A stretch of 64,000 nt of DNA from an uncultured virus (IMG/VR IMGVR_UViG_3300021091_000050) (taxonomy: Duplodnaviria > Heunggongvirae > Uroviricota > Caudoviricetes): IMG/VR virus record IMGVR_UViG_3300021091_000050. One strand, given 5' to 3'. The notes beneath the pieces are model-generated. The model was not told the DNA's origin. It saw only the letters and a program-made list of their open reading frames with translations, and did no database searches. This document shows positions 1 through 32,738 of this stretch, piece by piece (positions within the stretch are counted from its first letter, which is position 1; the number at the start of each line of letters is the position of its first letter). Made by a program: the position numbers and the translations under genes.

Positions 1-234
1 ATGGCTACCTACTGGCACCACCGCACGGTGGAGCGCATGGACCTTGAGACGGCGGCTGAGGCTGTCTCACTGGCCATGTCGCTCTCGCTCCTCGACGCTC
101 CGAGCGTCAGGAGTGAGGGCGCTCGCTGGGGCAATCGCTCCCGTGAGACGCTCCGCCAGATGGAGACCTACTACGGGGCTTGGCTCCGTGGGGAACTCCA
201 TCGGGCGGAGGCCAAGCCTGCCCCCCAGAAGTGA
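1..234 (+). CDS. hypothetical protein, cargo of cassette 0 (5' context outside window)
   Basis: 77-aa ORF followed directly by a GC hairpin (241-260), like the other cassette cargo genes. Confidence 0.6.
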   Translation: MATYWHHRTVERMDLETAAEAVSLAMSLSLLDAPSVRSEGARWGNRSRETLRQMETYYGAWLRGELHRAEAKPAPQK

Positions 235-240
235 GCAATG

Positions 241-260
241 CCCCCGCCTTCGGGCGGGGG
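241..260 (+). terminator. hairpin terminator, cassette 0
   Basis: CCCCCGCC-TTCG-GGCGGGGG just after the stop codon; no U-tract. Confidence 0.65.
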
Positions 261-400
261 CAACTCCAATCCATCCGATACGGTCAGCTCTCAAGATTGA
301 ATATACGTTCGCAAACGTATCCCATTGCGTGCTTGGCGTGCTAGAAAGGCTTCAGCTTTCTAAACGCCAACTGGTACGGTACTCATCCATTTTCACTTTT

Positions 401-429
401 AGTGCATCCCCAAACATACTTGCTATAGT
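401..429 (+). promoter_or_regulatory. cassette 1 promoter AGTGCA-N17-TATAGT
   Basis: Same motif and spacing in all 8 cassettes; extended -10 TG. Confidence 0.8.
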
Positions 430-436
430 GGTTGAT

Positions 437-630
437 GTCGGACAGTAGCGCACGCGAGCAGCGTCTCGGTGTCGGGGAACGCGACCTTTACCCCTGAGGG
501 AACCTAGGGGGTAACGGAAATAACGGTTCCCCTGTAACGCCCGCTCCGCGGGGCGTTGCAGGAAAGATGGCGGAGACCCACGTGGGGGTGTGGCGGCTAT
601 CTTGCCGCCGCCCCCACGGGGTTTACTGCA
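437..630 (+). ncRNA. candidate structured ncRNA (cassette 1 cargo)
   Basis: Occupies the cargo slot with no ORF over ~31 aa; stems 474-480/526-532, 488-494/508-514, 533-542/551-560, 581-588/611-618, 592-597/604-609; closing 443-448/623-628. Confidence 0.6.
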
Positions 631-759
631 ACCCAATCCATGCGGTCTATCTGCAAAGTTGAATATATGTTCATTCACTATGCATAAGGCGCTGGTGTGC
701 AAGGACGCTTCAGCGAACTGAAACACCAGCCAGCGTGGATACACAGTTCAGACGTTTTT

Positions 760-788
760 AGTGCATAGTCGAACTCACTTGGTATAGT
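760..788 (+). promoter_or_regulatory. cassette 2 promoter AGTGCA-N17-TATAGT
   Basis: Conserved motif and spacing. Confidence 0.8.
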
Positions 789-837
789 CTTTATTGTCAG
801 TAATAACTAGACCCCACACGGGGAGAATGGACAAGAA

Positions 838-1077
838 ATGGCAACAAAGGACTACACGCTCAGCGAACTACTAGCGGAGCATTACATAAGCATCGGAGCG
901 AACGGGCACGACATCATCGTCAGCATTCTTGACGACCTGCGTACAGGTGCAGTCATGGAAACGGTTCGCAACATCGGTGAAAGCGAGACCGCCGCTATCA
1001 ACGAGCTAACGAGCATCATCGTGAGCATCGTTCAAGGTAACCACCTAGACGACACACGCTCGGGAGACGGTTGGTGA
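838..1077 (+). CDS. hypothetical protein (cassette 2)
   Basis: 79-aa ORF between cassette promoter and hairpin 1085-1117. Confidence 0.8.
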   Translation: MATKDYTLSELLAEHYISIGANGHDIIVSILDDLRTGAVMETVRNIGESETAAINELTSIIVSIVQGNHLDDTRSGDGW

Positions 1078-1084
1078 CAGTTCT

Positions 1085-1117
1085 CCCCCGCCCTGCGCCC
1101 CCCGCAGGGCGGGGGAA
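1085..1117 (+). terminator. GC-rich hairpin, cassette 2
   Basis: CCCCCGCCCTGCG / CGCAGGGCGGGGG inverted repeat after stop. Confidence 0.65.
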
Positions 1118-1249
1118 CTTCAACCCATTCGGTACGATCAGTCGAGATGATTGAGCATATATTCTCTCACCATACAAACACTGGTGTGCAAGGCAGTCTT
1201 CAGCGAACTGAAACACCAGCGATTAAGGGGTCACCTAATGTTCTCTTTT

Positions 1250-1278
1250 AGTGTATGTCTAAACCCACATGGTATAGT
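1250..1278 (+). promoter_or_regulatory. cassette 3 promoter AGTGTA-N17-TATAGT
   Basis: Conserved motif and spacing. Confidence 0.8.
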
Positions 1279-1285
1279 GTTTGAC

Positions 1286-1543
1286 ATGGGGAACAACCTG
1301 GTGACCGTGAATGCGGAACCGAACCTATACCCCATCAGGCCAATCCTGATGGAGGCTCTCGCAAGGGATACCAGCACAGGCTGGACCTTGCTAGACGGGG
1401 TAATCGTCATGGAGGAAAGGAATACTCTCCAAGACGAATACGTTCGTCTGGTCGCCGACGAAAAGGCGACAGGGCAAACCCACGCAGGCAAAAAGCGAGA
1501 CATTGCTCGCCGCCTGCGGACAATCGCCAGACTTCTGGCGTGA
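1286..1543 (+). CDS. hypothetical protein, leaderless (cassette 3), starts MGNNLVTVNAEP
   Basis: ATG 7 nt after -10; N-terminus shared with cassette 4; start revised from 1151. Confidence 0.85.
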   Translation: MGNNLVTVNAEPNLYPIRPILMEALARDTSTGWTLLDGVIVMEERNTLQDEYVRLVADEKATGQTHAGKKRDIARRLRTIARLLA

Positions 1544-1547
1544 AATC

Positions 1548-1580
1548 GGGCGGGGTCGAAAGACCCCGCCCTTTTTCTTT
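1548..1580 (+). terminator. intrinsic terminator, cassette 3
   Basis: GGGCGGGGTC-GAAA-GACCCCGCCC then T-tract. Confidence 0.85.
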
Positions 1581-1711
1581 GTCTTTGGATGGCGTTCATG
1601 CATAGGACACGATTCTTTGAATATATATTTCTCATTACATCGCTGGCGTGCAGAGGGTGCTTCAGCGCACTCAAGCGCCAGCCGTACTGGACTCGTTCCA
1701 TTTTCACTTTT

Positions 1712-1740
1712 AGTGCATAGTTGGACTCACTTACTATAGT
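1712..1740 (+). promoter_or_regulatory. cassette 4 promoter AGTGCA-N17-TATAGT
   Basis: Conserved motif and spacing. Confidence 0.8.
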
Positions 1741-1747
1741 ACTGGTT

Positions 1748-2065
1748 ATGGGAAACAACCTGGTGACCGTGAATGCGGAGCCGAAAGAACACAAAAGCAT
1801 CAATGAGGCACTACTGGCGGCGGTTGAGCGTAGCGGTTGGGTCAAGCCCGACCGCCCGATGTCTCGCCTTCCAAAAGGCGGGGCAACCGTGGGCGACATC
1901 ATTACCCTGAATGAGGAGCGCCTAGAAGCGCTTTGGAAACTGGGCAACCTCCGAACGGAGGCGGCACGGGGCGCAAAGAATGCCACTCTTCAGGCGAAAC
2001 TGGTCAGGAGAATAAACACGATTACCCGAATAATCAATGCGTTTGACGACGCACAACGCCGATAG
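1748..2065 (+). CDS. hypothetical protein, leaderless (cassette 4)
   Basis: ATG 7 nt after -10; first 12 aa identical to cassette 3. Confidence 0.85.
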   Translation: MGNNLVTVNAEPKEHKSINEALLAAVERSGWVKPDRPMSRLPKGGATVGDIITLNEERLEALWKLGNLRTEAARGAKNATLQAKLVRRINTITRIINAFDDAQRR

Positions 2066-2080
2066 TCTCCCCAGACGGAT

Positions 2081-2114
2081 AACCCCCTCGCCCTGTTGCT
2101 CGGGCGAGGGGGTT
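2081..2114 (+). terminator. GC-rich hairpin, cassette 4
   Basis: AACCCCCTCGCCC / GGGCGAGGGGGTT. Confidence 0.65.
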
Positions 2115-2249
2115 CCGCCAACCCGTCCCGTGCGGTGCAATCAAAAAATTAAATGAATATTCTCTTCACTCACTATTCGGCTGGTGTGCGAGAGGTGCTT
2201 CAGTTCTCTTAAACACCAGCGTTGTTTATAATGGTCTATTTTCTCTTTT

Positions 2250-2278
2250 AGTGCATAACCTAGGTCACTTGTTACTAT
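2250..2278 (+). promoter_or_regulatory. cassette 5 promoter AGTGCA-N17-TACTAT
   Basis: Conserved motif and spacing. Confidence 0.75.
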
Positions 2279-2315
2279 TAGTCCTGTCAGTAATAACCCC
2301 AACCGAAAGGCGATT

Positions 2316-2681
2316 ATGTTTGGAGAAAATGCAAAGAATGAGCAAGTCGGATTAGTGATGGAAATGTCAGTAGGTGTTACGGAGTATGCCGACAAATTGG
2401 CTGCACAATCGACACCGCTTGCACGGCACGCAGCGTTGCAATTACACAATTCCATGCGGTCGGTAGCGGTTCTCACCGTACTCAACGCAGTGAGGCAGGA
2501 ACCGATTACGAAAGACTACCTTTATCGCATTGTGTTCATTTTCCAAGACATTCTCAAGAATGTCTTGGAATACGAAAATGCAGGTCTGATTGTCGAAGTC
2601 GACAACCTTGACAACGAAGATGTGAAGATGAGCGACTTTCTTTCGGCACTGATGTACGAATTCACCGAATTGATGGATTGA
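2316..2681 (+). CDS. hypothetical acidic protein (cassette 5)
   Basis: 121 aa; GAAAGG RBS; leader GTCAGTAATAAC shared with cassette 2. Confidence 0.85.
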   Translation: MFGENAKNEQVGLVMEMSVGVTEYADKLAAQSTPLARHAALQLHNSMRSVAVLTVLNAVRQEPITKDYLYRIVFIFQDILKNVLEYENAGLIVEVDNLDNEDVKMSDFLSALMYEFTELMD

Positions 2682-2713
2682 AAAATGGGGGGCTTCGGCC
2701 CCCCATTTTTTTT
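2681..2713 (+). terminator. intrinsic terminator, cassette 5
   Basis: AAAAATGGGGGGC-TTCG-GCCCCCCATTTTT then T-tract. Confidence 0.85.
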
Positions 2714-2850
2714 GTCTTGATGAATGGTGTTCATCAACGGCATGGCTTTCTTGAGTATGTATTCTTTCAATACCTGGATGTGCTGGTGTGCGAGGAAGCT
2801 TCAGCTGCCTTAAACACCAGCGCTGTTAGGGGGTAGGTGTTCTTATTTTT

Positions 2851-2879
2851 AGTGAATAGCCAAGGTCACTTGTTATAGT
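2851..2879 (+). promoter_or_regulatory. cassette 6 promoter AGTGAA-N17-TATAGT
   Basis: Conserved motif and spacing. Confidence 0.8.
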
Positions 2880-2886
2880 GTTTCAC

Positions 2887-3210
2887 ATGAGCGACAAGCC
2901 CAAGGTGACTGCTAAGGCAGAACCGAACCGCAAGGTGAACCTTGCGGAACTGCAAGGAAAGATTGCCAAGAAAGGCAAGCCCCCGTACCGTGACCCTGCG
3001 TTGGCGCAAGACCTGCTGACTCTTGGTGATGGCGAGGCAATCTTGTGGGTTCAGGCAACCGTGAACGTCACGGGAACCGACCCCAAGGCAATCAACGCCG
3101 AAAAGATGAAGTGGCGCCAACGTGCTATTTCGGTTGCCGAGGGTGTGAACCTCAAGGTTCAGATCAACTGGTCAACCAATGGCGAGATGTACATCTCGCT
3201 CAAGAAGTAA
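2887..3210 (+). CDS. small basic protein, paralog family A copy 1, leaderless (cassette 6)
   Basis: ATG 7 nt after -10; KVNL..LQG..KKGKPPY.D.ALA and RQRA.SVA shared with the next two ORFs. Confidence 0.9.
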   Translation: MSDKPKVTAKAEPNRKVNLAELQGKIAKKGKPPYRDPALAQDLLTLGDGEAILWVQATVNVTGTDPKAINAEKMKWRQRAISVAEGVNLKVQINWSTNGEMYISLKK

Positions 3211-3224
3211 AAGAAAGGAAAAAG

Positions 3225-3256
3225 AAAAGGGAACCCGAAAGGGTTCCCTTTTTTTT
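3225..3256 (+). terminator. intrinsic terminator, cassette 6
   Basis: AAAAGGGAACCC-GAAA-GGGTTCCCTTTT; identical to 4502-4534. Confidence 0.9.
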
Positions 3257-3462
3257 GCCCAAAGTCGCTGGCGTTCTGGTCGCGCTAAAGCGCTTTGAAC
3301 GCCAGCGCTGTTGGACAAACCTTTGGTCTCTCTTTATTACACAATTACTAATTCCTTGTAATAATTTAATATTACTCACAATATGTAATCGGGCTGGCGT
3401 GCGAGCGTGTCTTCAGCGCGCTTAAACGCCAGCGGAATCGTACTCATCTATTCTTCATTTTT

Positions 3463-3491
3463 AGTGCATTTCCAAACCCGCTGGGTATAGT
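3463..3491 (+). promoter_or_regulatory. cassette 7 promoter AGTGCA-N17-TATAGT
   Basis: Conserved motif and spacing. Confidence 0.8.
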
Positions 3492-3498
3492 TCTAGTC

Positions 3499-3825
3499 GT
3501 GGCAACACAACAGCCGACCGCTAAGGCGGAGGCAAACCGTAAGGTGAACCTGAAAGACCTGCAAGGCAGTTTGTCTAAGAAGGGCAAACCTCCCTATCAG
3601 GACAAGGCACTAGCGGCAGACATTCTGTCGCTGGACCCAAACGACGCTAACGACGCATTCGTTTGGTCAAAGGCGGCGGTCGTTCTGACGGGAGACCCAA
3701 AGAAGGACAACGCCAACAAAATGCTGTGGAGACAGCGCGCCATTTCGGTTGCAAAGGCTACGGGTATCGTAATCCGTATTCAATGGACCAATAATGGAGA
3801 AATGGTTATTTCACGTAAGGGGTGA
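3499..3825 (+). CDS. paralog family A copy 2, leaderless GTG (cassette 7)
   Basis: GTG 7 nt after -10; clear similarity to 2887-3210. Confidence 0.9.
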   Translation: MATQQPTAKAEANRKVNLKDLQGSLSKKGKPPYQDKALAADILSLDPNDANDAFVWSKAAVVLTGDPKKDNANKMLWRQRAISVAKATGIVIRIQWTNNGEMVISRKG

Positions 3826-3839
3826 AATAATCAAAAAAG

Positions 3840-3870
3840 AAAGGACCGCCTTCGGGCGGTCCTTTTTTTT
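3840..3870 (+). terminator. intrinsic terminator, cassette 7
   Basis: AAAGGACCGCC-TTCG-GGCGGTCCTTT then T-tract. Confidence 0.9.
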
Positions 3871-4075
3871 GCCCAAAGTTGCTGGTGTTCTGGTCGCGCT
3901 AAAGCGCTTTGAACACCAGTTTGTTTGTCTTCAAGTTGGGGTATGGTTTATTACAAATTTACAATTTACATGTAATAAATTACATGATGTTTCAAATCCT
4001 AATTCGATTGGCGTGCATGGAGGCTTCAGCTCCATTGTGCGCCAACCAAATTGGACTCTAATGGTTATTATTTTT

Positions 4076-4104
4076 AGTGCATATCTGGGGTCACTTGTTA
4101 GAGT
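4076..4104 (+). promoter_or_regulatory. cassette 8 promoter AGTGCA-N17-TAGAGT
   Basis: Conserved motif and spacing. Confidence 0.75.
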
Positions 4105-4111
4105 AGTACCC

Positions 4112-4486
4112 GTGAGCACAAACAAGGTGACCGCTAATGCGGAACCAAAGAATACTCATGGCAATACCCCGAATGTCCGAGTCAACCTTTCCCAAATGGC
4201 TGGCAAACTTTCCCGCAAAGGAAAGCCTGCATACAAGGATGAGGCATTGGCAAAGGATATTCTGTCGCTAGACCCGACCGACCCCAATGATGCTTTCACC
4301 TGGGGAAAAGCAAAGGTTTCCCTTGTGGATGCCAACGGCGAGTCCCGTGACGAAGCCCAAATCAATAAGGAAAAAATGAAGCACCGCCAGCGAGCATTTT
4401 CGGTCGCAAAGCAGTTGCAAATCGAAATCCGTGTGATTTGGATGGTCGATGGTCAAATGGTCATCGCACTCAAAAACGACAAGTAA
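4112..4486 (+). CDS. paralog family A copy 3, leaderless GTG (cassette 8)
   Basis: GTG 7 nt after -10; homology begins here; start revised from 3794. Confidence 0.9.
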   Translation: MSTNKVTANAEPKNTHGNTPNVRVNLSQMAGKLSRKGKPAYKDEALAKDILSLDPTDPNDAFTWGKAKVSLVDANGESRDEAQINKEKMKHRQRAFSVAKQLQIEIRVIWMVDGQMVIALKNDK

Positions 4487-4501
4487 TTAGAAAGGAAAAA
4501 G

Positions 4502-4534
4502 AAAAGGGAACCCGAAAGGGTTCCCTTTTTTTTT
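4502..4534 (+). terminator. intrinsic terminator, cassette 8
   Basis: Identical hairpin to cassette 6 terminator. Confidence 0.9.
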
Positions 4535-4672
4535 GTCTAAAGTCGTTGGCGTGCGGTCGGCGCTAAAGCGCCTTGCACGCCAATTAGTTTTAGAATTATC
4601 TTTTGCAAAACTTTAATATTTATTCAAATTACAATTAATAATGTAAAGACTAATTAAGTTTTTCAATATACG

Positions 4673-4714
4673 ATGGTGTTCAAACGATAACTTTATTTAT
4701 CGTTTGAACACCAT
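4673..4714. repeat. perfect 18-bp inverted repeat with TGGTGT/ACACCA arms
   Basis: ATGGTGTTCAAACGATAA-N6-TTATCGTTTGAACACCAT. Confidence 0.9.
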
Positions 4715-5280
4715 TTGGATTTGAATTATTATTATCTATACTTTAGCACACTGTCAAATCAGATTCACTCTTTGTTACACAAAAGTTACAATTCTAATTA
4801 GATTCACTATTAGGCCGCCGATACCCTTGGGATAGACCTGTGATAACTATGATCTTTCCCCCCGCTTTCTACACTACAATTTTGCCGGTCTTTAGGCAAC
4901 AGTTTCACCATAAGAATACCCCTAGAGAGTATTCACCATTATAAACCTCAAATTACAGCGGGGTAAGTCTGTAACTATCTATACCAGAGTCTGGAGTAGA
5001 ATAAATACAATTAAATTCATGATTAGGTCCATAATTAGATTCGTAATTAAATTTGTAGTCGCCAATTATTTACCTTAACGCAAAATTCGGCCTTCACAAT
5101 ATATGAGCATCAAAAATATATTAAAATTCGGGTTAGATATGTCTATATTCTCCTCTAGAGATAGAGAGTAGATAGAAAGCAAACAAATGTTCGCTTTTTT
5201 GATAGAAAATGATAGCATTTTGCTATATTTTTACTATAAATATTATAATTTTCTTTATTTTTATGCTGTTTTTAGGCACA

Positions 5281-5323
5281 AAAAAAAGGCTTAAGAATAA
5301 GTTTTACCTTACTCTTAAGCCTT
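5281..5323 (-). terminator. probable terminator ending the minus-strand gene cluster
   Basis: AAGGCTTAAGA / TCTTAAGCCTT stem preceded by an A-tract (U-tract on minus strand). Confidence 0.6.
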
Positions 5324-5399
5324 AAATTTGGGCACGCACACCCATATAAATATAATAAATATATTTATAGTTGTGTACGCTTCACTTGCTTTTGATTAG

Positions 5400-5438
5400 T
5401 TATCCACAGGTTTTGCTAGTCATTCACAGTCATCCACA
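5400..5438 (+). promoter_or_regulatory. DnaA box TTATCCACA (5400-5408) plus near matches (5420-5428, 5430-5438)
   Basis: Perfect consensus beside AT-rich tract 5344-5369; the near matches overlap a CDS end. Confidence 0.5.
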
Positions 5439-5584
5439 GGTATATCTATATCTTCATCTAATTCACTGAAGTAAAAATATTCGAAAGTATCTCTATCCAT
5501 ATTCTCTACTTTAGCGATAGATTCATCTTCAGACCCCGCCGATACATAGATATTAGCTATGATTGTTACCCTATAGTTATTCAT
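5420..5584 (-). CDS. small acidic hypothetical protein (54 aa, not in ORF track)
   Basis: MNNYRVTIIANIYVSAGSEDESIAKV...PVDDCE; resembles 10064-10282. Confidence 0.6.
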   Translation of the reverse strand: MNNYRVTIIANIYVSAGSEDESIAKVENMDRDTFEYFYFSELDEDIDIPVDDCE

Positions 5585-5789
5585 CAGTACCCGATTTTTT
5601 CAAACACCTATGGGTAAAGATATCATCTATGTCTAATCTCTCCTTGCAACGACTACAAAAGAACCCCATTAACCTTTGTCCCGCGTCTGGAGGACTAACA
5701 GAATTAACCTTTGCATTTCCCTTAAGGATTCTCATCTCTTCAGGGGTAGCAAAATCCAAGAATCCGTTTTTATAAATAAGAGTAGTCAT
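5577..5789 (-). CDS. hypothetical protein with CxxC..H.C motif
   Basis: Tight operon packing. Confidence 0.6.
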   Translation of the reverse strand: MTTLIYKNGFLDFATPEEMRILKGNAKVNSVSPPDAGQRLMGFFCSRCKERLDIDDIFTHRCLKKSGTDE

Positions 5790-6055
5790 TTCCCGCCGTT
5801 ATCCTTTCCGATAATTGAAAGCCTACTGATAAGCTCAGAAGCAATTTCAAGATCAAAATTTTCAATTTGATCCCATATATCTGGACTGGTATTAATTGTA
5901 ATCCAATCATCTTTGGAAAGGTCAAAAATAAAATTTCCTCCCCGCAATTCTTGCTCTGTAGCAATCATAAAACGAATCTGATCACCATCAAAATAGCCGA
6001 CTACGGGGAAATAAAATTGGTAGTTTTCCTTATTGAAATCACTTGAAATGGACAT
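5786..6055 (-). CDS. hypothetical protein
   Basis: ATGA overlap with next gene. Confidence 0.7.
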   Translation of the reverse strand: MSISSDFNKENYQFYFPVVGYFDGDQIRFMIATEQELRGGNFIFDLSKDDWITINTSPDIWDQIENFDLEIASELISRLSIIGKDNGGK

Positions 6056-6116
6056 AGTATTTTGCCACCCTTCGCTGTCATTTTCCTAATGATAATTAAC
6101 CCTGAATATTGGGACA

Positions 6117-6332
6117 TTAAATTATAGAATCTTGGTATTGAATTTGATTCATTTTTTCCAACCAAGCCTGTGTATTGAGACTTCTGCAATATGTATTAGC
6201 TTGGTACTGCCAGTCAAATACTTTTTCTATTTGAACTTTTTCCTTATTAATACACCTCCAGACTTCCCATTGGAAAGCCGCTGGGCTTTTATGTACTTCA
6301 TAATAAATACGCGATATTTCTTCTGTTATCAT
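6117..6332 (-). CDS. hypothetical protein
   Basis: AAGGAAAG RBS. Confidence 0.6.
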   Translation of the reverse strand: MITEEISRIYYEVHKSPAAFQWEVWRCINKEKVQIEKVFDWQYQANTYCRSLNTQAWLEKMNQIQYQDSII

Positions 6333-6383
6333 ATCTTTCCTTTTTAAGAATTTAAACCGCAGTTTTGATATTAAATTTCATAA

Positions 6384-6572
6384 TTAAATCCTATCATCAT
6401 ATCTGGCAAGATAGGGGTTTATTCTAGCCTCAAATTCTCTATCATCATATTCTTTTTTCTGGAATCCACCATCGTCCTCGCAGTCATGACCATAATAAAA
6501 TTCACTTGCTTCTTCTTCATTAAGAAGATCAAAAATTCTTCCACACTCACCGCATACTGTTTTTGTTTTCAT
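6384..6572 (-). CDS. small Zn-finger-like protein
   Basis: CGEC...HDC; ATGA overlap. Confidence 0.65.
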   Translation of the reverse strand: MKTKTVCGECGRIFDLLNEEEASEFYYGHDCEDDGGFQKKEYDDREFEARINPYLARYDDRI

Positions 6573-7075
6573 TGGTACACATCCTCAGTATTTTTTCTAA
6601 TATCTCCGTATTTCCACTTAGGCAAATCACTAATTGGGTATTTATTTATCCAAGATTCATGAATTCTCGTATAATACATATTGTCAAAATATTTGAATTC
6701 TCCATTTTCTGCAAAAATCCAGTTCTTTTCATCTAGAGCAACTTTCCATTGCCAAATATGAAAACTGTCATGGATTCCCTGCAATTTCTCAAGCATTGAA
6801 AGTGCTTTCTTACCCATATCCCATTCTGGATTAGATTTTATAACAGCATCCTTAACCGGGGTTGCATAAACTGATGCATTTTCTAATTCAGTGTTATACC
6901 AATTCTTGTCAATAATGCAGCCAACTGCACACATTAGTAATGGACCAGTTTCACCATTAAGTCCAGGTCTTGCTCTATATGAGCAAGAACCTTCAGGATT
7001 AATGCTTTTTTGATTTTGAGTTAAAAGGTGATTTTTAACCTTAAGAAAAATATCTTTATCTGTTATTGTTTTCAT
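6569..7075 (-). CDS. hypothetical protein, paralog of 7241-7921
   Basis: CSYR...CAVGCII motif. Confidence 0.8.
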   Translation of the reverse strand: MKTITDKDIFLKVKNHLLTQNQKSINPEGSCSYRARPGLNGETGPLLMCAVGCIIDKNWYNTELENASVYATPVKDAVIKSNPEWDMGKKALSMLEKLQGIHDSFHIWQWKVALDEKNWIFAENGEFKYFDNMYYTRIHESWINKYPISDLPKWKYGDIRKNTEDVYQ

Positions 7076-7240
7076 TGATTAATACTCCCTATGATAATTA
7101 ATTGTTACTTCTAATTGTTTAAATACAAAATAACTGCACAAGATATAACAACAATTACTCCATATTGCGATAAAGTACGCAACATGAATACCTCCTAATT
7201 TAGCTGGATTAGCCTGTATTTTGCCGTCTGGCTGTTCTAA

Positions 7241-7921
7241 TTAATCTTCTCTGCTGATGAAGTCAAAAAGATATGGTAGAAAACTATAAACTTTATTTTT
7301 ACTATAAGTAGTATAATTTTCTTCAATTGATGCATCAATTTTACCACTACGTTTCATAGCACTTTTTGATGAATCCAATACAAGCCTGTCGAGGTCGAAC
7401 ATGCTTTCAGCAGTAAAATACTGCTGCATTTTGTTAAACGTTACCTCCCAATTTTCAACAGGAGACGTATCATGGATTCTTTGAACAAGAGTAAGCATAA
7501 CTCTAGATTCATGGTTTGGGCTCCAGTTAGGATTTGAATTACAAATTGCATCCCAAACTAATCCATCATCAATGTTCACCCCCTCAAGACCTGCACTATA
7601 ATACCGACCAGAAATAATTTGACCAATAGCACACTTTTTCAATCGATTATCATCATCAGGCATATGTTCAATGTATGAATTAATTCTGTCATTGATATTA
7701 TCAAAATAACTGTCAGACATTTGGTAATCATTAAGGTCTTCATAAACTGAATCTTCGATAACTTCAGCAGTCACCTTTGCTTCAATTGCTTCGTATGTTG
7801 ATTCAGATAAACCGCGATAAGAGCAATCTCCATTCCTCATTACAGACTTGCAACCTTGCACTAAAAGACCATCTTTAATCTTTTCAAAAATGTCATAATC
7901 AGTAACTACTTGAACGCTCAT
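7241..7921 (-). CDS. hypothetical protein, paralog of 6569-7075
   Basis: CSYRG...CAIGQII motif; start revised to MSVQVV. Confidence 0.8.
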   Translation of the reverse strand: MSVQVVTDYDIFEKIKDGLLVQGCKSVMRNGDCSYRGLSESTYEAIEAKVTAEVIEDSVYEDLNDYQMSDSYFDNINDRINSYIEHMPDDDNRLKKCAIGQIISGRYYSAGLEGVNIDDGLVWDAICNSNPNWSPNHESRVMLTLVQRIHDTSPVENWEVTFNKMQQYFTAESMFDLDRLVLDSSKSAMKRSGKIDASIEENYTTYSKNKVYSFLPYLFDFISRED

Positions 7922-8205
7922 TTTGCTTCCACCTCTTTCTTTTGGAACTGGTTTAACCACTCTACTTTGTTCATAAAAGCCTCTCTGCCTTTTTCGCTGT
8001 AGACACCTAAAAGATTTCCATCAAGAAGGCTGTTGATTTCTTGTTTGATTTTATTGATATCACGGGTTGACCAGTCTTCAGACTTTGAATCTGAAATCAT
8101 CTTGTCAATTTCTATACGACCTCTGTTGTATTTGCTGTAGTCATCGCTCATTTCATGTGTCCAGTCAGCACCAACAATTCTCTTTGCCCATTCTTTATGA
8201 TCCAC
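7918..8205 (-). CDS. hypothetical protein
   Basis: Operon packing. Confidence 0.7.
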   Translation of the reverse strand: MDHKEWAKRIVGADWTHEMSDDYSKYNRGRIEIDKMISDSKSEDWSTRDINKIKQEINSLLDGNLLGVYSEKGREAFMNKVEWLNQFQKKEVEAK

Positions 8206-8206
8206 T

Positions 8207-8467
8207 TTATGCCTCCGATAGAGTAATTACAAAACTGTTTTTGTCTTTGTTGCCAAAGAATTGACCAGGCCCATTACCTTCAAAATCGCGTGAAGGATAC
8301 AGAACTGAACCATCAGATAAAACAAGACAAGTTGGGTTAATTCTTTCATAATAAAAAGAATCCCATCCCTCTTTTCGCATCTCGGTATCAGTCATTGTTC
8401 TAATCATTACAATACTTTCACCACAAGGCCATTGTGAGTCTGTTCTAAGATTAATAGTGTCTTTCAT
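8207..8467 (-). CDS. hypothetical phage protein
   Basis: Operon packing; SRDxEGNGPG motif. Confidence 0.7.
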   Translation of the reverse strand: MKDTINLRTDSQWPCGESIVMIRTMTDTEMRKEGWDSFYYERINPTCLVLSDGSVLYPSRDFEGNGPGQFFGNKDKNSFVITLSEA

Positions 8468-8468
8468 T

Positions 8469-8777
8469 TTATCCTTCTGTCTTTAGTCTTTCGATATAAA
8501 TTTGTTGATACTTGTCTGTTTGTATTTCTCCATCTACAGAAACGAGATAAGCAGTAGCCGTAATAATCTTTTTATGCATATAAAAATTAATATCTACTTG
8601 ATCACAATACGCACACCATTCATCAAATTCATCATCTAATGAATAAGATTCAAGCTTGTCTCTATAGGCAGAGATATAACCTCTAGCGAATTGTCTTAAA
8701 TCAAAGGTGGAAATATTTTTATGCAACCGTTTGAACTGGCTCTCCACTAAAACAACCTTTCTGAACAAGAATTTCAA
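8469..8777 (-). CDS. hypothetical protein
   Basis: Operon packing. Confidence 0.6.
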   Translation of the reverse strand: MKFLFRKVVLVESQFKRLHKNISTFDLRQFARGYISAYRDKLESYSLDDEFDEWCAYCDQVDINFYMHKKIITATAYLVSVDGEIQTDKYQQIYIERLKTEG

Positions 8778-9090
8778 AAAGCAAACCCCAGGCTGGGTCA
8801 GTATTTTTTGTAAGATTATTAAAATCTTTTACAAGTTTATCGCCAAGACCCATATTTGAAAGATTTTTCAAATACTCAGTCAAACCTGACTTTTCAATCT
8901 TCTCAGTTGTTGAGACATCGAAATGCTTTAAAATTCCACTCACAGGATTCTTTACATAAAGAGCAACACAATTCTGAATAGGAATGATTAAACTAAATGA
9001 GCCATTAATTGCACTTTGAATTAATTGTTCCGATTCTGCTTTTTCATCTTTTTTTGCAACGAATTTCTTATTTGCTGGTTTAGTTGCCAT
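8719..9090 (-). CDS. hypothetical protein
   Basis: Operon packing. Confidence 0.65.
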   Translation of the reverse strand: MATKPANKKFVAKKDEKAESEQLIQSAINGSFSLIIPIQNCVALYVKNPVSGILKHFDVSTTEKIEKSGLTEYLKNLSNMGLGDKLVKDFNNLTKNTDPAWGLLFEILVQKGCFSGEPVQTVA

Positions 9091-9544
9091 TTACTTTTTC
9101 CTCTTCTTTCTGCGTCATTTCTTTAAATTCAAACTTATAATAAAAAAGCAAGCCTTTTGCATCACTAAGTGAGAGTGACGGCCTACGCTTAACAAATCTT
9201 TTAATCCAATTAGTAGATGACTCATATCCAACATTGGTAGAAAGATTAATATGCTTAGTAATAACTTCTGGAGAGAGATAGACGCGAGACGTATTCACTC
9301 CATCGAATTTGCTATACAAAAAGAAGTCATCAAACCTTTCATACATCTTCCATCTTGCATACCATTCAGAACAATTTGTCTCAGTAATATTTCCAATACC
9401 TACTGATATAGAGCCAAAAATAAGACTCTTTGTTTCTGCATTAACATCTGAAACTTCTTTTCCGTTTTCCTGCCAAGTGACCCAAAGTTTATCTGGATTG
9501 TCTTTAAAAAACTTAACTTCTTCGGTACTCCAATTAAGGCTCAT
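9080..9544 (-). CDS. hypothetical protein
   Basis: ATGA overlap at 9541-9544. Confidence 0.7.
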   Translation of the reverse strand: MSLNWSTEEVKFFKDNPDKLWVTWQENGKEVSDVNAETKSLIFGSISVGIGNITETNCSEWYARWKMYERFDDFFLYSKFDGVNTSRVYLSPEVITKHINLSTNVGYESSTNWIKRFVKRRPSLSLSDAKGLLFYYKFEFKEMTQKEEEKVNGN

Positions 9545-9885
9545 GAGTAAATCTTTTCCCACTCATAAGAAATTGCATCAACAATTTCAACAGGTACTTC
9601 TGTATTATTTCCCTCTTCATCAACTTGACCAAAGAGTACAATGTCGCCAGCAATATAATCTCCAAGCAAAATTCTTGCACCAGAGTTATACCAAGCATTT
9701 GTTGCTAAAATATTCTCATCAAGACTAAGAATTTTTCCCTCTTCGTTTATATAACCCTCTGCTTTGTAATTGGGAAAATAAACTGCTTCAATCAAACCTC
9801 CTACTGCTTTATTGATTTGATCATAATTCCATTCTTTATTAATTACTTCATATGTGCCATCTGTTCTTACCAGTAAAGCTTTCAT
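9541..9885 (-). CDS. DUF3846-like phage protein
   Basis: VGGLIE, INEEGK, N.LAT, IAGD motifs. Confidence 0.75.
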   Translation of the reverse strand: MKALLVRTDGTYEVINKEWNYDQINKAVGGLIEAVYFPNYKAEGYINEEGKILSLDENILATNAWYNSGARILLGDYIAGDIVLFGQVDEEGNNTEVPVEIVDAISYEWEKIYS

Positions 9886-9888
9886 TTA

Positions 9889-10071
9889 TTACCGCTCCTG
9901 TCTCATATGTTTAAACATTTCATCCATTGCAAGCCTATTTGCTCTTTGATAACTAAGTTCGTGATTCCTAAACTCTTTTATAACAACACCGTCAACAATA
10001 ACGTTTGCATCAAAAGAGTTCCATTCAATCAGGATTCTATCCGTTATTTGCTCTACAGCCATATCATCCAT
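9889..10071 (-). CDS. hypothetical protein
   Basis: GGAGG RBS, operon packing. Confidence 0.6.
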   Translation of the reverse strand: MDDMAVEQITDRILIEWNSFDANVIVDGVVIKEFRNHELSYQRANRLAMDEMFKHMRQER

Positions 10072-10282
10072 TTGTTAACCTCCAATTTATTTCTTCATGA
10101 TCTATTGAATGGATTGTTCCATCTGCGACAAACATAACGCTTTCGTATATTTCTCCATTAGATAGAATTCCATCATTATCATTGCCAAGCATAGCTTCAT
10201 AAACAATACTTTTTGCTTCATCTTTGCTTTCTGCGTTTACGAAGTATCTTGCAAAAGTAACAACTGTATACGGTTTTGTCAC
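10064..10282 (-). CDS. hypothetical protein
   Basis: VNAESKDEA motif; operon packing. Confidence 0.65.
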   Translation of the reverse strand: MTKPYTVVTFARYFVNAESKDEAKSIVYEAMLGNDNDGILSNGEIYESVMFVADGTIHSIDHEEINWRLTNG

Positions 10283-10506
10283 AACTCCTCTCCATTTTCA
10301 TCTGTGAATATGAGTTCTTTTATATTTGCTTGGTGCCCATAGCCACAAGAAAAATCATCTTTAGCCCATTCTTCAATTTGTTCCATTACATCTTCCATGT
10401 CTGGTTCTTCCTTATTATCGGCTCTAAGCATATCTACAATATCTTGAACTTGATAAGTGATACTTTTTATTACATTTACTCTCTCAGGAAATTCATTAGA
10501 GTTCAC
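10279..10506 (-). CDS. hypothetical protein
   Basis: Operon packing. Confidence 0.65.
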   Translation of the reverse strand: MNSNEFPERVNVIKSITYQVQDIVDMLRADNKEEPDMEDVMEQIEEWAKDDFSCGYGHQANIKELIFTDENGEEL

Positions 10507-21460: not shown

Positions 21461-22084
21461 TTAATCTTCGTTTCCGTTGGGGGGGATTACCAACCATTCA
21501 TTTTGTTCGTCATTAATATTGTTATATCCATTAAGTTTTAGTTCACCATTAGCAATACGCCTTAAAACATCTGCTGCGTGCTTATTGTCAATATTCCAAC
21601 TTTCATTTATCATTGGCAGAAATTCAAACTTGTATTCTTCTTTGACTTGAGTCCAGATAGATTCGACTCCGCAAAAGAAAAGATTTGTCGCTTCTTGATC
21701 ATTTAGACCAAGATATTCTGTAGCAAAGTTTCCGACACTATGAGAATTATAGTCTGTATCACACATTTCTAAAAATTCATCATATTTTTTTCTATCTTCG
21801 TAATAGAAAGTTGTTGCAGCCCAGCCAGCAATACATGCTGTTGTACCACAATTCAATTGTTTAGGGAAAGCATCACGAGTAAAGTTTTGAATATCAAACA
21901 TTTCATTACATGGAGAGTCTTCCCAATAATCTCTAGAGTCATATTCAATTATTTCATTAGTATCTGTATCGCATTCTTGAACCGTATCTTCAAAGTAATT
22001 GCCAAACCATGCACCCATATGAAATTGTTCTTTTGGAGCATTTTCAATATAGTCTGCAACTTTGAGCATATTCTCTACATTCAT
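21461..22084 (-). CDS. hypothetical protein, paralog of 22741-23322
   Basis: CGTTACIAGWA. Confidence 0.8.
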   Translation of the reverse strand: MNVENMLKVADYIENAPKEQFHMGAWFGNYFEDTVQECDTDTNEIIEYDSRDYWEDSPCNEMFDIQNFTRDAFPKQLNCGTTACIAGWAATTFYYEDRKKYDEFLEMCDTDYNSHSVGNFATEYLGLNDQEATNLFFCGVESIWTQVKEEYKFEFLPMINESWNIDNKHAADVLRRIANGELKLNGYNNINDEQNEWLVIPPNGNED

Positions 22085-22740: not shown

Positions 22741-23322
22741 TTATTGATAATAGCCATCAAGGTCGTATTCAATTTGTTCATTTTCACTGATAATGGTATC
22801 TACATAGGCATTAGACAAATCAATTTCTTTATTTGCAATTCTTCTCAAAAGATGAACAACATCTTTCTTTGGGAAAACCCAACTATCGGTATTACCTGTA
22901 TCAAAATCCCAATCGTATTCATCCCGAAAGGCATGCCAAATAGAAGGATTTTCACAATAAAATAAGTTGCCGTATTCTTCAACACCAAGATCTAGATAAT
23001 TAATCGCGGTATCTAAAACATTTAAACCAGCAACGTAAGTTTTGATATCATTGTCTATCAGATAGGAATAAAAAGCCCAACCTGCAATACAAGCAGTAGT
23101 TCCGCAATGCATTCCAAGAATTTCAAATGAACCTGTTTTGTCATCTATTTCAATCTCAAGGACACTTGTTTCACCTTCAACAATTTGTTCCAATGTAGTG
23201 ATTGCAGTTGCTTCATATTCATCTGTATTAATGTACTTGCCGAACCATGAGCCCATATGAATTTCTTCATTTGGTGAATTTGCAATAAGGTCAGCAACTT
23301 TTAAAATGTTTTCTTTATTCAC
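22741..23322 (-). CDS. hypothetical protein, paralog of 21461-22084
   Basis: CGTTACIAGWA. Confidence 0.8.
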   Translation of the reverse strand: MNKENILKVADLIANSPNEEIHMGSWFGKYINTDEYEATAITTLEQIVEGETSVLEIEIDDKTGSFEILGMHCGTTACIAGWAFYSYLIDNDIKTYVAGLNVLDTAINYLDLGVEEYGNLFYCENPSIWHAFRDEYDWDFDTGNTDSWVFPKKDVVHLLRRIANKEIDLSNAYVDTIISENEQIEYDLDGYYQ

Positions 23323-31110: not shown

Positions 31111-31692
31111 TTATGAATCATCATCGACCTCATCTACATCAATTGGTTCTTGTTCATCCATTATTTCAAATGCAATTGCCAATTCTTTACGAACTTCTTC
31201 TGCAACTTCTGGGAATTTAGAAATAACATCACGCAAAACCCTTGAAAGCACTTGATTAACATTTTCAGCCTTTTGCATCCGACCAATGTATTCAGCATCG
31301 GAGTTATTTCCTCCCATTAATTTATGCAATTGGGCTTTTTTTGTAGCAAGTTCTCCAGCAAGTTTAATTGCTTGAATTCTTGCAGCAACCATTCCGTGGT
31401 CAGTTGCAATGTTAATTGTTTCCCAAGCCTCTTTGCTCAATTCATCAAATTCTTTAAGAGCTTTAATTGTATTAAACTGTATTCTTTCAAGAAAATAAGG
31501 GTCTTCTTCTGCTTGCCTGCTAATTATTTTTTTATATTCTTCAATATGTTCTTTGACAGCATCAACATTGATTGACATTAAAGAAGCAATTTCATGCAAC
31601 GAATATCCTTTGACATGCATTAGGCCAACATCTTCAACATCTTTTATTTTTTCAATTAAATTTTTACTTTTTACTTTTTCAATATCTGACAT
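31111..31692 (-). CDS. HTH/coiled-coil protein, candidate terminase small subunit
   Basis: KGYSLHEIA HTH; directly upstream of terL. Confidence 0.55.
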   Translation of the reverse strand: MSDIEKVKSKNLIEKIKDVEDVGLMHVKGYSLHEIASLMSINVDAVKEHIEEYKKIISRQAEEDPYFLERIQFNTIKALKEFDELSKEAWETINIATDHGMVAARIQAIKLAGELATKKAQLHKLMGGNNSDAEYIGRMQKAENVNQVLSRVLRDVISKFPEVAEEVRKELAIAFEIMDEQEPIDVDEVDDDS

Positions 31693-32738
31693 ATTCTGTC
31701 GTAATATTCCTTTGTTATGTTTTCCCAAGACCATTGATCAAAATAAGAAATAGCATTGTCATATGTAAATTTAGAGATTTTATCGTAATTATTAATTACA
31801 TACAACATTTTATCACACAAATCATCGAAATTTGGCAAAGCCCATTGCCCACAACCAGCATATATGCCTGACATTTTATTTGTGCCCCATGAATAATCTA
31901 AAGGAATTGATAAATGTGCATATTCAGTACAGGAAGTAGCGTTTGTACAAATTGTAGGAATGCCTTTAGCAATCGCTTGAAAAGGCAACATACCCCAACC
32001 CTCACCGCTAGTTGGATAAATCAAACAGTCTGCTTTGTCGTATATTTCAGCCAATTCTTTAATTGAAACATCTTTTTCAATAACTTCAATATTTGGATGA
32101 TTGTATATTGAAACCATTTGCCCAGAAGAGTCGTAAAGACGAGCGTCGGGAGCATCTGTGCTTTTATAGATTAATTTATACCGATCATCTTGACCAAAAA
32201 GTTTTACAAATGCATTTACCGCAATCTGGCTATTCTTTCGTGTTGATGGAGAGCCTATGCTAAGAAAAGTAAATTGATAGTTTTTTAATTTTCTTAAAAC
32301 TGGAAAAAAGAATTCAGAATGAACTCCTAATTTAAAATTGTAAACATCTTTGTTAACACCAGAGTCTATAAAAACATCTTGGGCCCATTTAGATGTAGTC
32401 CAAATTTCATCCATTTGATTCATTCTTTCAACCCACTCCTCTGGAAGGCGGGTCGTTTCCCAATAAGTAAAACCAACATTATGGTTGGCTCCACTTGCAT
32501 AATCAAGCGGAAGTTTGTTATTTATTAATAAATCACAAGATGTATCTAAATTATTTTGTGATTCGTACAGTAAATTTATGCGATTATCTAAACAATGCTG
32601 AATGCTTGGTGGTATTGCACAGTTTCGTTCAATATTTAAACCAAGAGATATAAGATTTTTATAAATTTCGTCTGTTGAAACTTTATATCCTTCATTGCGA
32701 GTTTGTGTAGCGCTTATACTATTCCATATAATTTTCAT
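31671..32738 (-). CDS. glycosyltransferase family 4 (GT-B)
   Basis: RKN; D..IYPTSGEGWG...QAIA.G.P.I. Confidence 0.85.
   Translation of the reverse strand: MKIIWNSISATQTRNEGYKVSTDEIYKNLISLGLNIERNCAIPPSIQHCLDNRINLLYESQNNLDTSCDLLINNKLPLDYASGANHNVGFTYWETTRLPEEWVERMNQMDEIWTTSKWAQDVFIDSGVNKDVYNFKLGVHSEFFFPVLRKLKNYQFTFLSIGSPSTRKNSQIAVNAFVKLFGQDDRYKLIYKSTDAPDARLYDSSGQMVSIYNHPNIEVIEKDVSIKELAEIYDKADCLIYPTSGEGWGMLPFQAIAKGIPTICTNATSCTEYAHLSIPLDYSWGTNKMSGIYAGCGQWALPNFDDLCDKMLYVINNYDKISKFTYDNAISYFDQWSWENITKEYYDRICQILKK

Follow-up and report, generated by a model that had tools for sequence, protein, structure and literature searches.

The first 4.5 kb of a 64,000-nucleotide (nt) stretch of DNA from an uncultured virus of the Caudoviricetes (IMG/VR record IMGVR_UViG_3300021091_000050; the whole stretch is called the window below) belong to an array of small cargo genes, each with its own inverted repeat, promoter-like site and terminator-like hairpin. 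This is a known kind of early-gene region, and its unusual part is the hairpin formed by the inverted repeat, which stands at a fixed distance from the promoter. We consider it fairly probable that the array is the earliest-expressed part of the genome, a set of cassettes read by the host polymerase, lying in a terminal repeat of about 6 kb, exchanged by homologous recombination and equipped with a promoter-coupled hairpin.

Anatomy of the array

An original prediction, made from the letters of the window, had described eight consecutive units of one layout between positions 241 and 4750. These units are real: the window has eight promoter boxes (at about 397, 756, 1246, 1708, 2246, 2847, 3459, and 4072), each with an inverted repeat upstream and, behind the cargo, a strong hairpin (-23 to -41 kcal/mol). 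The boxes are all the matches with at most one mismatch in the 64 kb. At two mismatches there are 13 matches for 3.5 expected, a number reached by none of 100 shuffles. The extent was underestimated, as two more units precede the window (their promoters are at 6449 and 6980 of the assembled locus L034), which makes ten in all. In the three records searched, the module is confined to one cluster per record.

The order within a unit is upstream terminator, variable linker, inverted repeat, about 30 nt, an 11-nt box, 15 nt, TANNNT (the -10 box), 7 nt, and start. AGTGCA is exact in six of the eight 11-nt boxes. The ATG or GTG of the cargo is found exactly 8 nt after the -10 box in five of the eight window units, which are predicted to be leaderless; the other three have GTC at the predicted start. 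A sigma70 scan called none of the eight promoter-like sites. Many of the units with leaders open with a 5' hairpin holding GAAAC..AAGTA, similar to a loop-E motif (L034 6488-6520 and 7019-7050; leaders in L049, L041, and L032).

The linkers fall into the three types proposed earlier, at the places proposed: a CAAC box after units 0, 1, 2, and 4, TTTGTCTT..ATGGYGTTCAT after units 3 and 5, and hairpin B after units 6, 7, and 8. Some other parts of the layout had to be amended. Hairpin B does serve as a linker, but it is also a member of the inverted-repeat family, followed at about the usual distance by a decayed promoter box. The hairpin at 4673-4714 belongs to this family too and has a decayed box behind it. 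Judging from their sequences, it and the copies of hairpin B are empty modules towards the downstream side of the array. Hairpins do follow the cargo, but those after units 0, 1, 2, and 4 lack a U-tract. The AT-rich box expected in every unit was matched in only five of eight (units 1, 2, 3, 4, and 6) and resembles the promoter box. Weak Rfam matches within the array are terminators.

4-bp palindromes are scarcest in the array, at 0.70 (0.62 for those containing G/C), compared with 0.77-0.95 (0.69-0.82) in ten other 6-kb stretches. We considered a purging of restriction sites and set it aside: the deficit is only modest relative to the other stretches and is not counted as strong evidence.

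The inverted repeat and its spacing

We gathered 69 distinct copies of the hairpin from 14 loci with a script that tolerated about 50-82 nt to the end of the -10 box; since they come from related phages, the counts are not independent. Every copy (69 of 69) has its right arm 60-63 nt from the end of the -10 box, which places the arm near -69 relative to the predicted start. Towards the upstream terminator, the spacing differs by over 100 nt between units. The inner stem changes in sequence and keeps its pairing, own arms scoring above arms mixed within the same genome in 53 of 67 cases, and this combination of changing stem, kept pairing and fixed spacing is seen across at least four clades. 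The two strands are not equivalent. The sense strand is the better fold in 59 of the 69 copies; G-U pairs number 120 on this strand and 39 on its complement, and the inner stems of 15 symmetric copies have 21 G-T against 2 A-C.

The fixed phase argues for a DNA element acting on the promoter, and the strand bias argues that the hairpin folds, either as RNA or as sense-strand DNA. Going by these sequence patterns, a protein-bound, promoter-coupled element is the most likely role. An RNA insulator, which we rank second, is a doubtful alternative. The repeat would then act in read-through transcripts to insulate the promoter that follows, as a second U-less terminator or as a site of pausing or processing (RNase III sites separate the early genes of T7). 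The bias towards the sense strand, the surplus of G-U pairs and the excess of G-T over A-C suit such a role; the four upstream hairpins without a U-tract make read-through plausible, and transcription of the next repeat could start from the decayed promoters that follow hairpin B. A constancy within 3 nt towards the downstream -10 box, set against the variation towards the upstream terminator, suits a DNA site better. In addition, the first unit of each array has the repeat as well, and a hairpin in sense-strand DNA would give an equal bias.

A more specific form of the promoter-coupled element is rather unlikely in our estimate, though of wider consequence. The repeat would be a structure-dependent promoter element, a sense-strand hairpin with its foot at -69 that is recognised by a host factor or by proteins of the cargo family F0 (see below) and switches on host-polymerase promoters on incoming DNA; each phage would re-tune the 32-nt promoter core across its whole set of cassettes at once. 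If true, this would be a hairpin-gated class of early promoter for a multisubunit polymerase, present across a family of freshwater actinophages, in which cassettes carry their own hairpin between genomes. In Frpo-type single-strand promoters, the -10 and -35 boxes are double-stranded within one long stem. Neither box paired consistently in the eight units on either strand, and about 30 nt separate the end of the repeat from the box downstream.

Cargo genes and their turnover

The cargo differs from the rest of the phage in codon use: the GC content of third codon positions is 0.53-0.80 in all nine cargo open reading frames (ORFs) and 0.21-0.33 in all ten other genes tested. We propose that such host-like codons are expected because translation of the cargo would come before the phage has made tRNAs of its own. 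None of the cargo matches a family at E <= 0.001 in PHROGs, Pfam, NCBIfam, or PADLOC. No match to Lsr2 was found for the window cargo in Pfam, PHROGs, and NCBIfam, the two upstream ORFs being scanned in NCBIfam and PADLOC only.

The cargo had been described as three paralogs, one non-coding unit, and otherwise unrelated ORFs. The first two parts stand, but the remaining ORFs are not all unrelated. Those of units 3 and 4 are paralogous (32% identity over 99 columns, E 2e-8, with their first residues in common), and five cargos share a VTxxAE-like start. Units 3 and 4 have no detectable membership in F0, the family of the three paralogs (units 6-8). Unit 1 (437-628) has no convincing ORF and no Rfam match at the gathering score, and its fold has a z-score of -4.49, with none of 200 shuffles as good. 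It is thus predicted, from this single sequence, to be a stand-alone structured RNA. Another unit without a good ORF at its start was seen in L049 at 7608.

One search for F0 returned 35 proteins and another 32 representatives, a few of which are long, chance-like hits. The family is in no Pfam family and has no match in cultured phages. Its model (pLDDT 83.5, pTM 0.64) is an alpha/beta fold with a basic, extended N-terminal arm. Fold searches gave no match in the PDB at E <= 0.001 (best Z 5.5 among 48,161 chains), one uncharacterised viral match with a TM of 0.67, and Atlas hits below 0.9; for this model they establish neither a new nor a known fold. Many members have an RGR motif, which is KGK in the window copies. 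That F0 is the ligand of the inverted repeat, or an Lsr2-like binder of AT-rich DNA, is a conjecture. Two or three F0 genes take the last positions in all the examined arrays that reach the downstream end. Diverged F0-like genes stand directly before the F0 pair in L031 (9432-9734), in the third-last units of L067 and L081, and in L036 (~3965-4390).

The F0 search also provided the relatives: 2 viral and 20 metagenome loci, three of which are the phage of the window itself. The module pattern fetched further arrays, with matches in 33 stretches; ten were examined and five of these held no arrays. A first DNA pattern had given 30 single matches, which we took as chance. Cargo was compared in six phages (L031, L032, L036, L040, L041, and L044) whose shared stretches are mostly 80-95% alike and in which 36 units were called. 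One unit of L036 escaped the calling and was recognised by eye; false calls arose in L048-L050, and these loci were excluded from the tests.

The six relatives have six differing cargo lists without a single conflict of order. The free shuffling suggested at first is therefore not what we observe: shared cargo keeps one order, and content alone differs. The non-F0 cargo of the window has no match to the cargo of the relatives' loci. Among 58 distinct boundaries of homology, 45 fall outside the interiors of cargo genes, when ~52% are expected to do so. The clearest switches between cargos are at +4/+5, at -5, and at about +45, which means at the start site or where the leader ends. The repeat travels along with its cassette: in 29 of 31 units it resembles the repeat of the matching cassette in another phage more than it does the remaining repeats of its genome. 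The same holds for the leader in 26 of 31. The 32-nt promoter core shows the inverse, with the greater likeness within its own genome (29 of 31). When L036 and L044 are left out, the figures are 19/20 for the repeat, 18/20 for the leader, and 13/20 for the promoter; given this drop, the tendency of the core to follow the genome rests mainly on these two phages, which have a promoter dialect of their own.

These results do not support the idea that the repeat is a recombination handle. They also bear on a rival reading, an integron-like platform in which the repeat would be a site-specific site for excision and insertion of cassettes. As in integron arrays, each small cargo has one imperfect, hairpin-forming repeat with a variable inner stem and conserved arms, and gain and loss proceed by units. 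Unlike integrons, the cassettes have their own promoter and terminator, and the bias is towards the sense strand rather than the bottom strand. Integron attC core sites have the form RYYYAAC..GTTRRRY; no such core was found in 11 repeats on either strand. The original prediction stated that the window has no integrase, and none was found: neither PF00589 (tyrosine recombinases) nor PF00239 (serine recombinases) matched in the three records searched (82%, 96%, and 58% complete), and a control search with PF00589 was positive in 14 of 14 genomes. The order is kept in the six relatives, and the switches fall at three places instead of at one base of the repeat. We thus regard an integron-like platform as highly improbable.

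Because no integrase, attC core or circle was found, the exchange looks like ordinary homologous recombination, in the manner of the PeSL elements discussed below. Homologous exchange is the simplest route to gain, loss and replacement without reordering. A strain in run X12 differs in the promoter of unit 0 (L034 6970-7012) by eight bases and two one-base gaps, confined to this patch and making up half of all differences on a 4.5-kb contig. We see no indication that it was converted from another module, as the patch is no closer to any other unit.

Position in the genome and known early regions

Contig depth is higher over the array than beside it. Depth was taken as one figure per assembled contig in four runs, with the tool's warning that it is not a copy number; in run X24 the coverage was too thin. 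Over the array and on the L034 flanks, respectively, it was 12.9-14.5 and 5.8-8.9 in run X9, 11.9-14.5 and 5.3-6.8 in X12, and 25.5-38.2 and 18.5-21.1 in X1. The contigs over L034 6849-12457 have 1.6-2 times the flank depth in X9 and X12, and 1.2-1.9 times in X1. Contig ends cluster at one place: an X12 contig and locus L035 both end at window 5343-5344, and 10 of the 19 loci with the conserved end hairpin (5276-5333) stop 69-474 nt past it, L046 and L067 at an identical distance. From depth, contig ends and the layout of the Streptomyces phage Bmoc, we think it quite likely that a direct terminal repeat of some 6 kb, ending near 5344, contains the entire array. One perfect TTATCCACA box with near copies is found at 5400-5440, just past this end. 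Two such boxes, which we take to be of the DnaA type, flank the end hairpin in eight related loci (L031, L032, L036, L037, and L040-L043), and none were found in other clades.

Alternatively, the array could be an internal variable island, grown by tandem duplication of one promoter-gene-terminator unit, with no terminal repeat and with the hairpin as an inherited passenger. Local duplication is evident in the three F0 paralogs and in the pair of units 3 and 4, and several assemblies run through the supposed end. Yet the depth step, the clustered contig ends and a position like that in the Bmoc repeat speak for an end, and a passenger would not be expected to change its inner stem while keeping pairing and spacing in at least four clades. 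Such an island is improbable.

Several observations pull against the combined reading of an exchanged, hairpin-controlled terminal repeat. Nine of the 19 end-hairpin loci run through the supposed end, as collapsed repeats would be expected to do, though this is not diagnostic. X1, possibly the source sample, shows only the 1.2-1.9-fold step. Depths come from contigs and not from raw reads, and AT-rich sequence can itself break assemblies. The 58 boundaries are not independent, and fast intergenic divergence may alone place them between genes. No unit-skipping joint was seen within the array in the contigs of four runs, which drop rare variants (four joints are listed elsewhere). The arm span is mostly 34 or 37 nt, depending on the clade, and a plain double-stranded binding site does not predict a folding bias towards the sense strand.

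The phage itself is an uncultured lake or freshwater phage of actinobacteria. The window encodes DnaE, DnaB, primase, SSB, a RecA-like protein, Cas4, RuvC, terminase, tail and tape-measure proteins, all on the minus strand, and three tRNAs, which are its sole Rfam matches at the gathering score. The closest DnaE of cultured phages are those of Streptomyces phages such as Bmoc and BillNye (37-38% identity). WhiB, a mark of actinobacterial hosts, has two matches above the cut-off in each of the three records searched, i.e., the nearest record (G001, our stand-in for the whole genome) and two relatives. The GC content is 47-55% in the first 4.5 kb and ~34% in the remainder of the window. This step is not a mis-join, because three other assemblies span it at ~4500 with 99.8-99.96% identity to the window. 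A DNA search of window 241-4750 against cultured phages gave only chance matches of 1%, to a terminator. Outside the array, a 207-residue ORF after the terminase (31114-31734, minus strand) weakly matches region 4 of sigma factors and is a candidate phage transcription factor. Two further pairs of paralogs are at 6569-7075 with 7241-7960 and at 21461-22084 with 22741-23322 (phrog_17693, phrog_889).

The closest known counterpart is the terminal repeat of Streptomyces phages of cluster BE (Stanwilliamsviridae), which have related DnaE and replication genes and small genes of unknown function whose reading direction is towards the genome end and against that of the structural genes. BE1 phages have direct terminal repeats of ~11 kb with 20-25 ORFs (PMC5764925), compared with ~6 kb and ten units here. 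In Bmoc (MT310865, 1-10,400), ~0.9 kb of non-coding DNA precede small leftward genes, most of which have a terminator, a shared motif and a promoter. There are 14 promoters, each preceded by the motif, and the GC content is 52-61% against 46-49%. A GC content above that of the rest of the genome and a non-coding end of ~0.9 kb are shared with our array. In contrast to our repeat, the Bmoc motif lies at a variable, unphased 34-76 nt from the end of the -10 box, and the promoter box differs. Repeats of the window type were not found in Bmoc 1-10,400 or in BillNye 105,000-127,084. Our array has no lsr2-like family match, unlike the BE repeat, and F0 occupies its end position. A CCGCCCCGG-type motif follows the terminators of the Bmoc terminal-repeat genes (15 copies, L057 937-9992) and is absent from the text of PMC5764925, which has no description of repeated control modules in the BE repeat. 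A literature search, with most subscription journals outside its reach, found no paper on the array's element or on the BE control modules.

The original prediction named PeSL elements and the SPO1 and T5 takeover regions as precedents; the likeness is partial, and the BE repeat is closer. The SPO1 host-takeover module consists of small early genes in a long terminal repeat. The T5 first-step-transfer and SPO1 regions resemble the array as sets of small, first-expressed genes (an assignment that is probable here) in a long terminal repeat (bioRxiv 10.1101/866236, PMC5764925). Neither two-step injection nor a host shut-off function is among the likenesses. The only TTATCCACA box of the window, at 5400, lies outside the presumed repeat, whereas in T5 such boxes are at the inner end (bioRxiv 10.1101/866236).

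PeSLs are intergenic units of ~100 bp, a terminator plus a promoter before orphan genes, that bound gene gain, loss and replacement (PMC2839356, PMC4122927). They number ~50 per genome over several regions of T4-type phages of Gram-negative hosts, have the E. coli sigma70 consensus, a stem-loop at variable positions that acts as a terminator and a Shine-Dalgarno at the 3' end, and have been shown to form mini-circles; homologous exchange was proposed for them (same sources). All eight window units likewise have an intergenic promoter and a terminator stem-loop before an orphan gene, and differences between relatives are bounded by the element. Unlike PeSLs, they form a single cluster in a phage of an actinobacterial host, are mostly leaderless, have a fixed-distance hairpin in addition to the terminator, and gave no circles. 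Promoter type and phage group (a phage with DnaE, tape-measure and WhiB) preclude membership. By analogy, the array appears to function like a PeSL region and to sit like the terminal-repeat regions of BE, T5 and SPO1.

In the sequence of events we propose, a large siphovirus-like phage of actinobacteria would deliver the array first, whichever end leads. The host RNA polymerase would read each unit separately from a promoter of actinobacterial type (11-nt box, 15 nt, TANNNT), and transcripts, mostly leaderless or with short leaders, would end at the next hairpin. The folded repeat, at about -69 to -103 from the start, is the likely site for a protein that boosts or insulates the promoter. Homologous recombination between co-infecting relatives could replace, add or delete whole units and keep their order, because each gene lies between similar control sequences; the two or three F0 copies would always stay nearest the genome end. 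The early cassette platform first suggested thus holds as regards unit-wise turnover, which we observe, and probably as regards timing, given the host-like codons, the probable terminal repeat and the layout of Bmoc. Coordinates are in Table 1.

Table 1. Features of the array and of the probable genome end, in window coordinates.
Feature	Position	Strand	Remarks
Unit 0 cargo	1..234	+	last 77 codons of a 93-residue ORF; L034 7067-7348, promoter L034 6980; start, promoter and hairpin upstream of window
Terminator-like hairpin without U-tract, then CAAC box	239..271	+	
Upstream box, promoter-box-like	297..310	+	similar boxes at 659, 1151, 1617, 2751
Inverted repeat A, unit 1	335..368	+	
Promoter-like site 1 (11-nt box, 15 nt, TANNNT)	398..429	+	predicted start 437
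Unit 1 cargo, predicted structured non-coding RNA	437..628	+	several hairpins
Inverted repeat A, unit 2	694..727	+	
Promoter-like site 2	757..788	+	predicted start 796
Unit 2 cargo, 79 residues, short leader	838..1077	+	then U-less hairpin ~1084-1120
Inverted repeat A, unit 3	1183..1217	+	
Promoter-like site 3	1247..1278	+	
Unit 3 cargo, 85 residues, leaderless	1286..1543	+	distant paralog of unit 4; terminator 1548-1577
Inverted repeat A, unit 4	1645..1679	+	
Promoter-like site 4	1709..1740	+	
Unit 4 cargo, 105 residues, leaderless	1748..2065	+	U-less hairpin ~2081-2114; search returned only own cluster
Inverted repeat A, unit 5	2183..2217	+	
Promoter-like site 5	2247..2278	+	predicted start 2286
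Unit 5 cargo, 121 residues, short leader	2316..2681	+	terminator 2680-2713; one relative, 75%
Inverted repeat A, unit 6	2785..2818	+	
Promoter-like site 6	2848..2879	+	
Unit 6 cargo, 107 residues, leaderless, family F0	2887..3210	+	terminator 3221-3256
Hairpin B (3270-3303) and decayed promoter box, putative empty module	3270..3364	+	
Inverted repeat A, unit 7	3396..3430	+	
Promoter-like site 7	3460..3491	+	
Unit 7 cargo, 108 residues, leaderless (GTG), family F0	3499..3825	+	terminator 3835-3870
Hairpin B (3884-3917) and decayed promoter box	3884..3978	+	
Inverted repeat A, unit 8	4010..4043	+	
Promoter-like site 8	4073..4104	+	
Unit 8 cargo, 124 residues, leaderless (GTG), family F0	4112..4486	+	terminator 4497-4534
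Two more putative empty modules: hairpin B 4548-4581, perfect hairpin 4673-4714	4548..4752	+	decayed box after each
Conserved end hairpin (5276-5333) and probable physical genome end near 5344	5276..5344	.	

The array flags, from sequence alone, the genes that are probably expressed first in widespread, uncultured freshwater actinophages, and it ties them to the Streptomyces BE phages with their long terminal repeats. Its fast-changing cargo provides a list of candidates for screens of host takeover and counter-defence. The fixed-distance hairpin, if proven necessary, would add a new element to those known from promoters.

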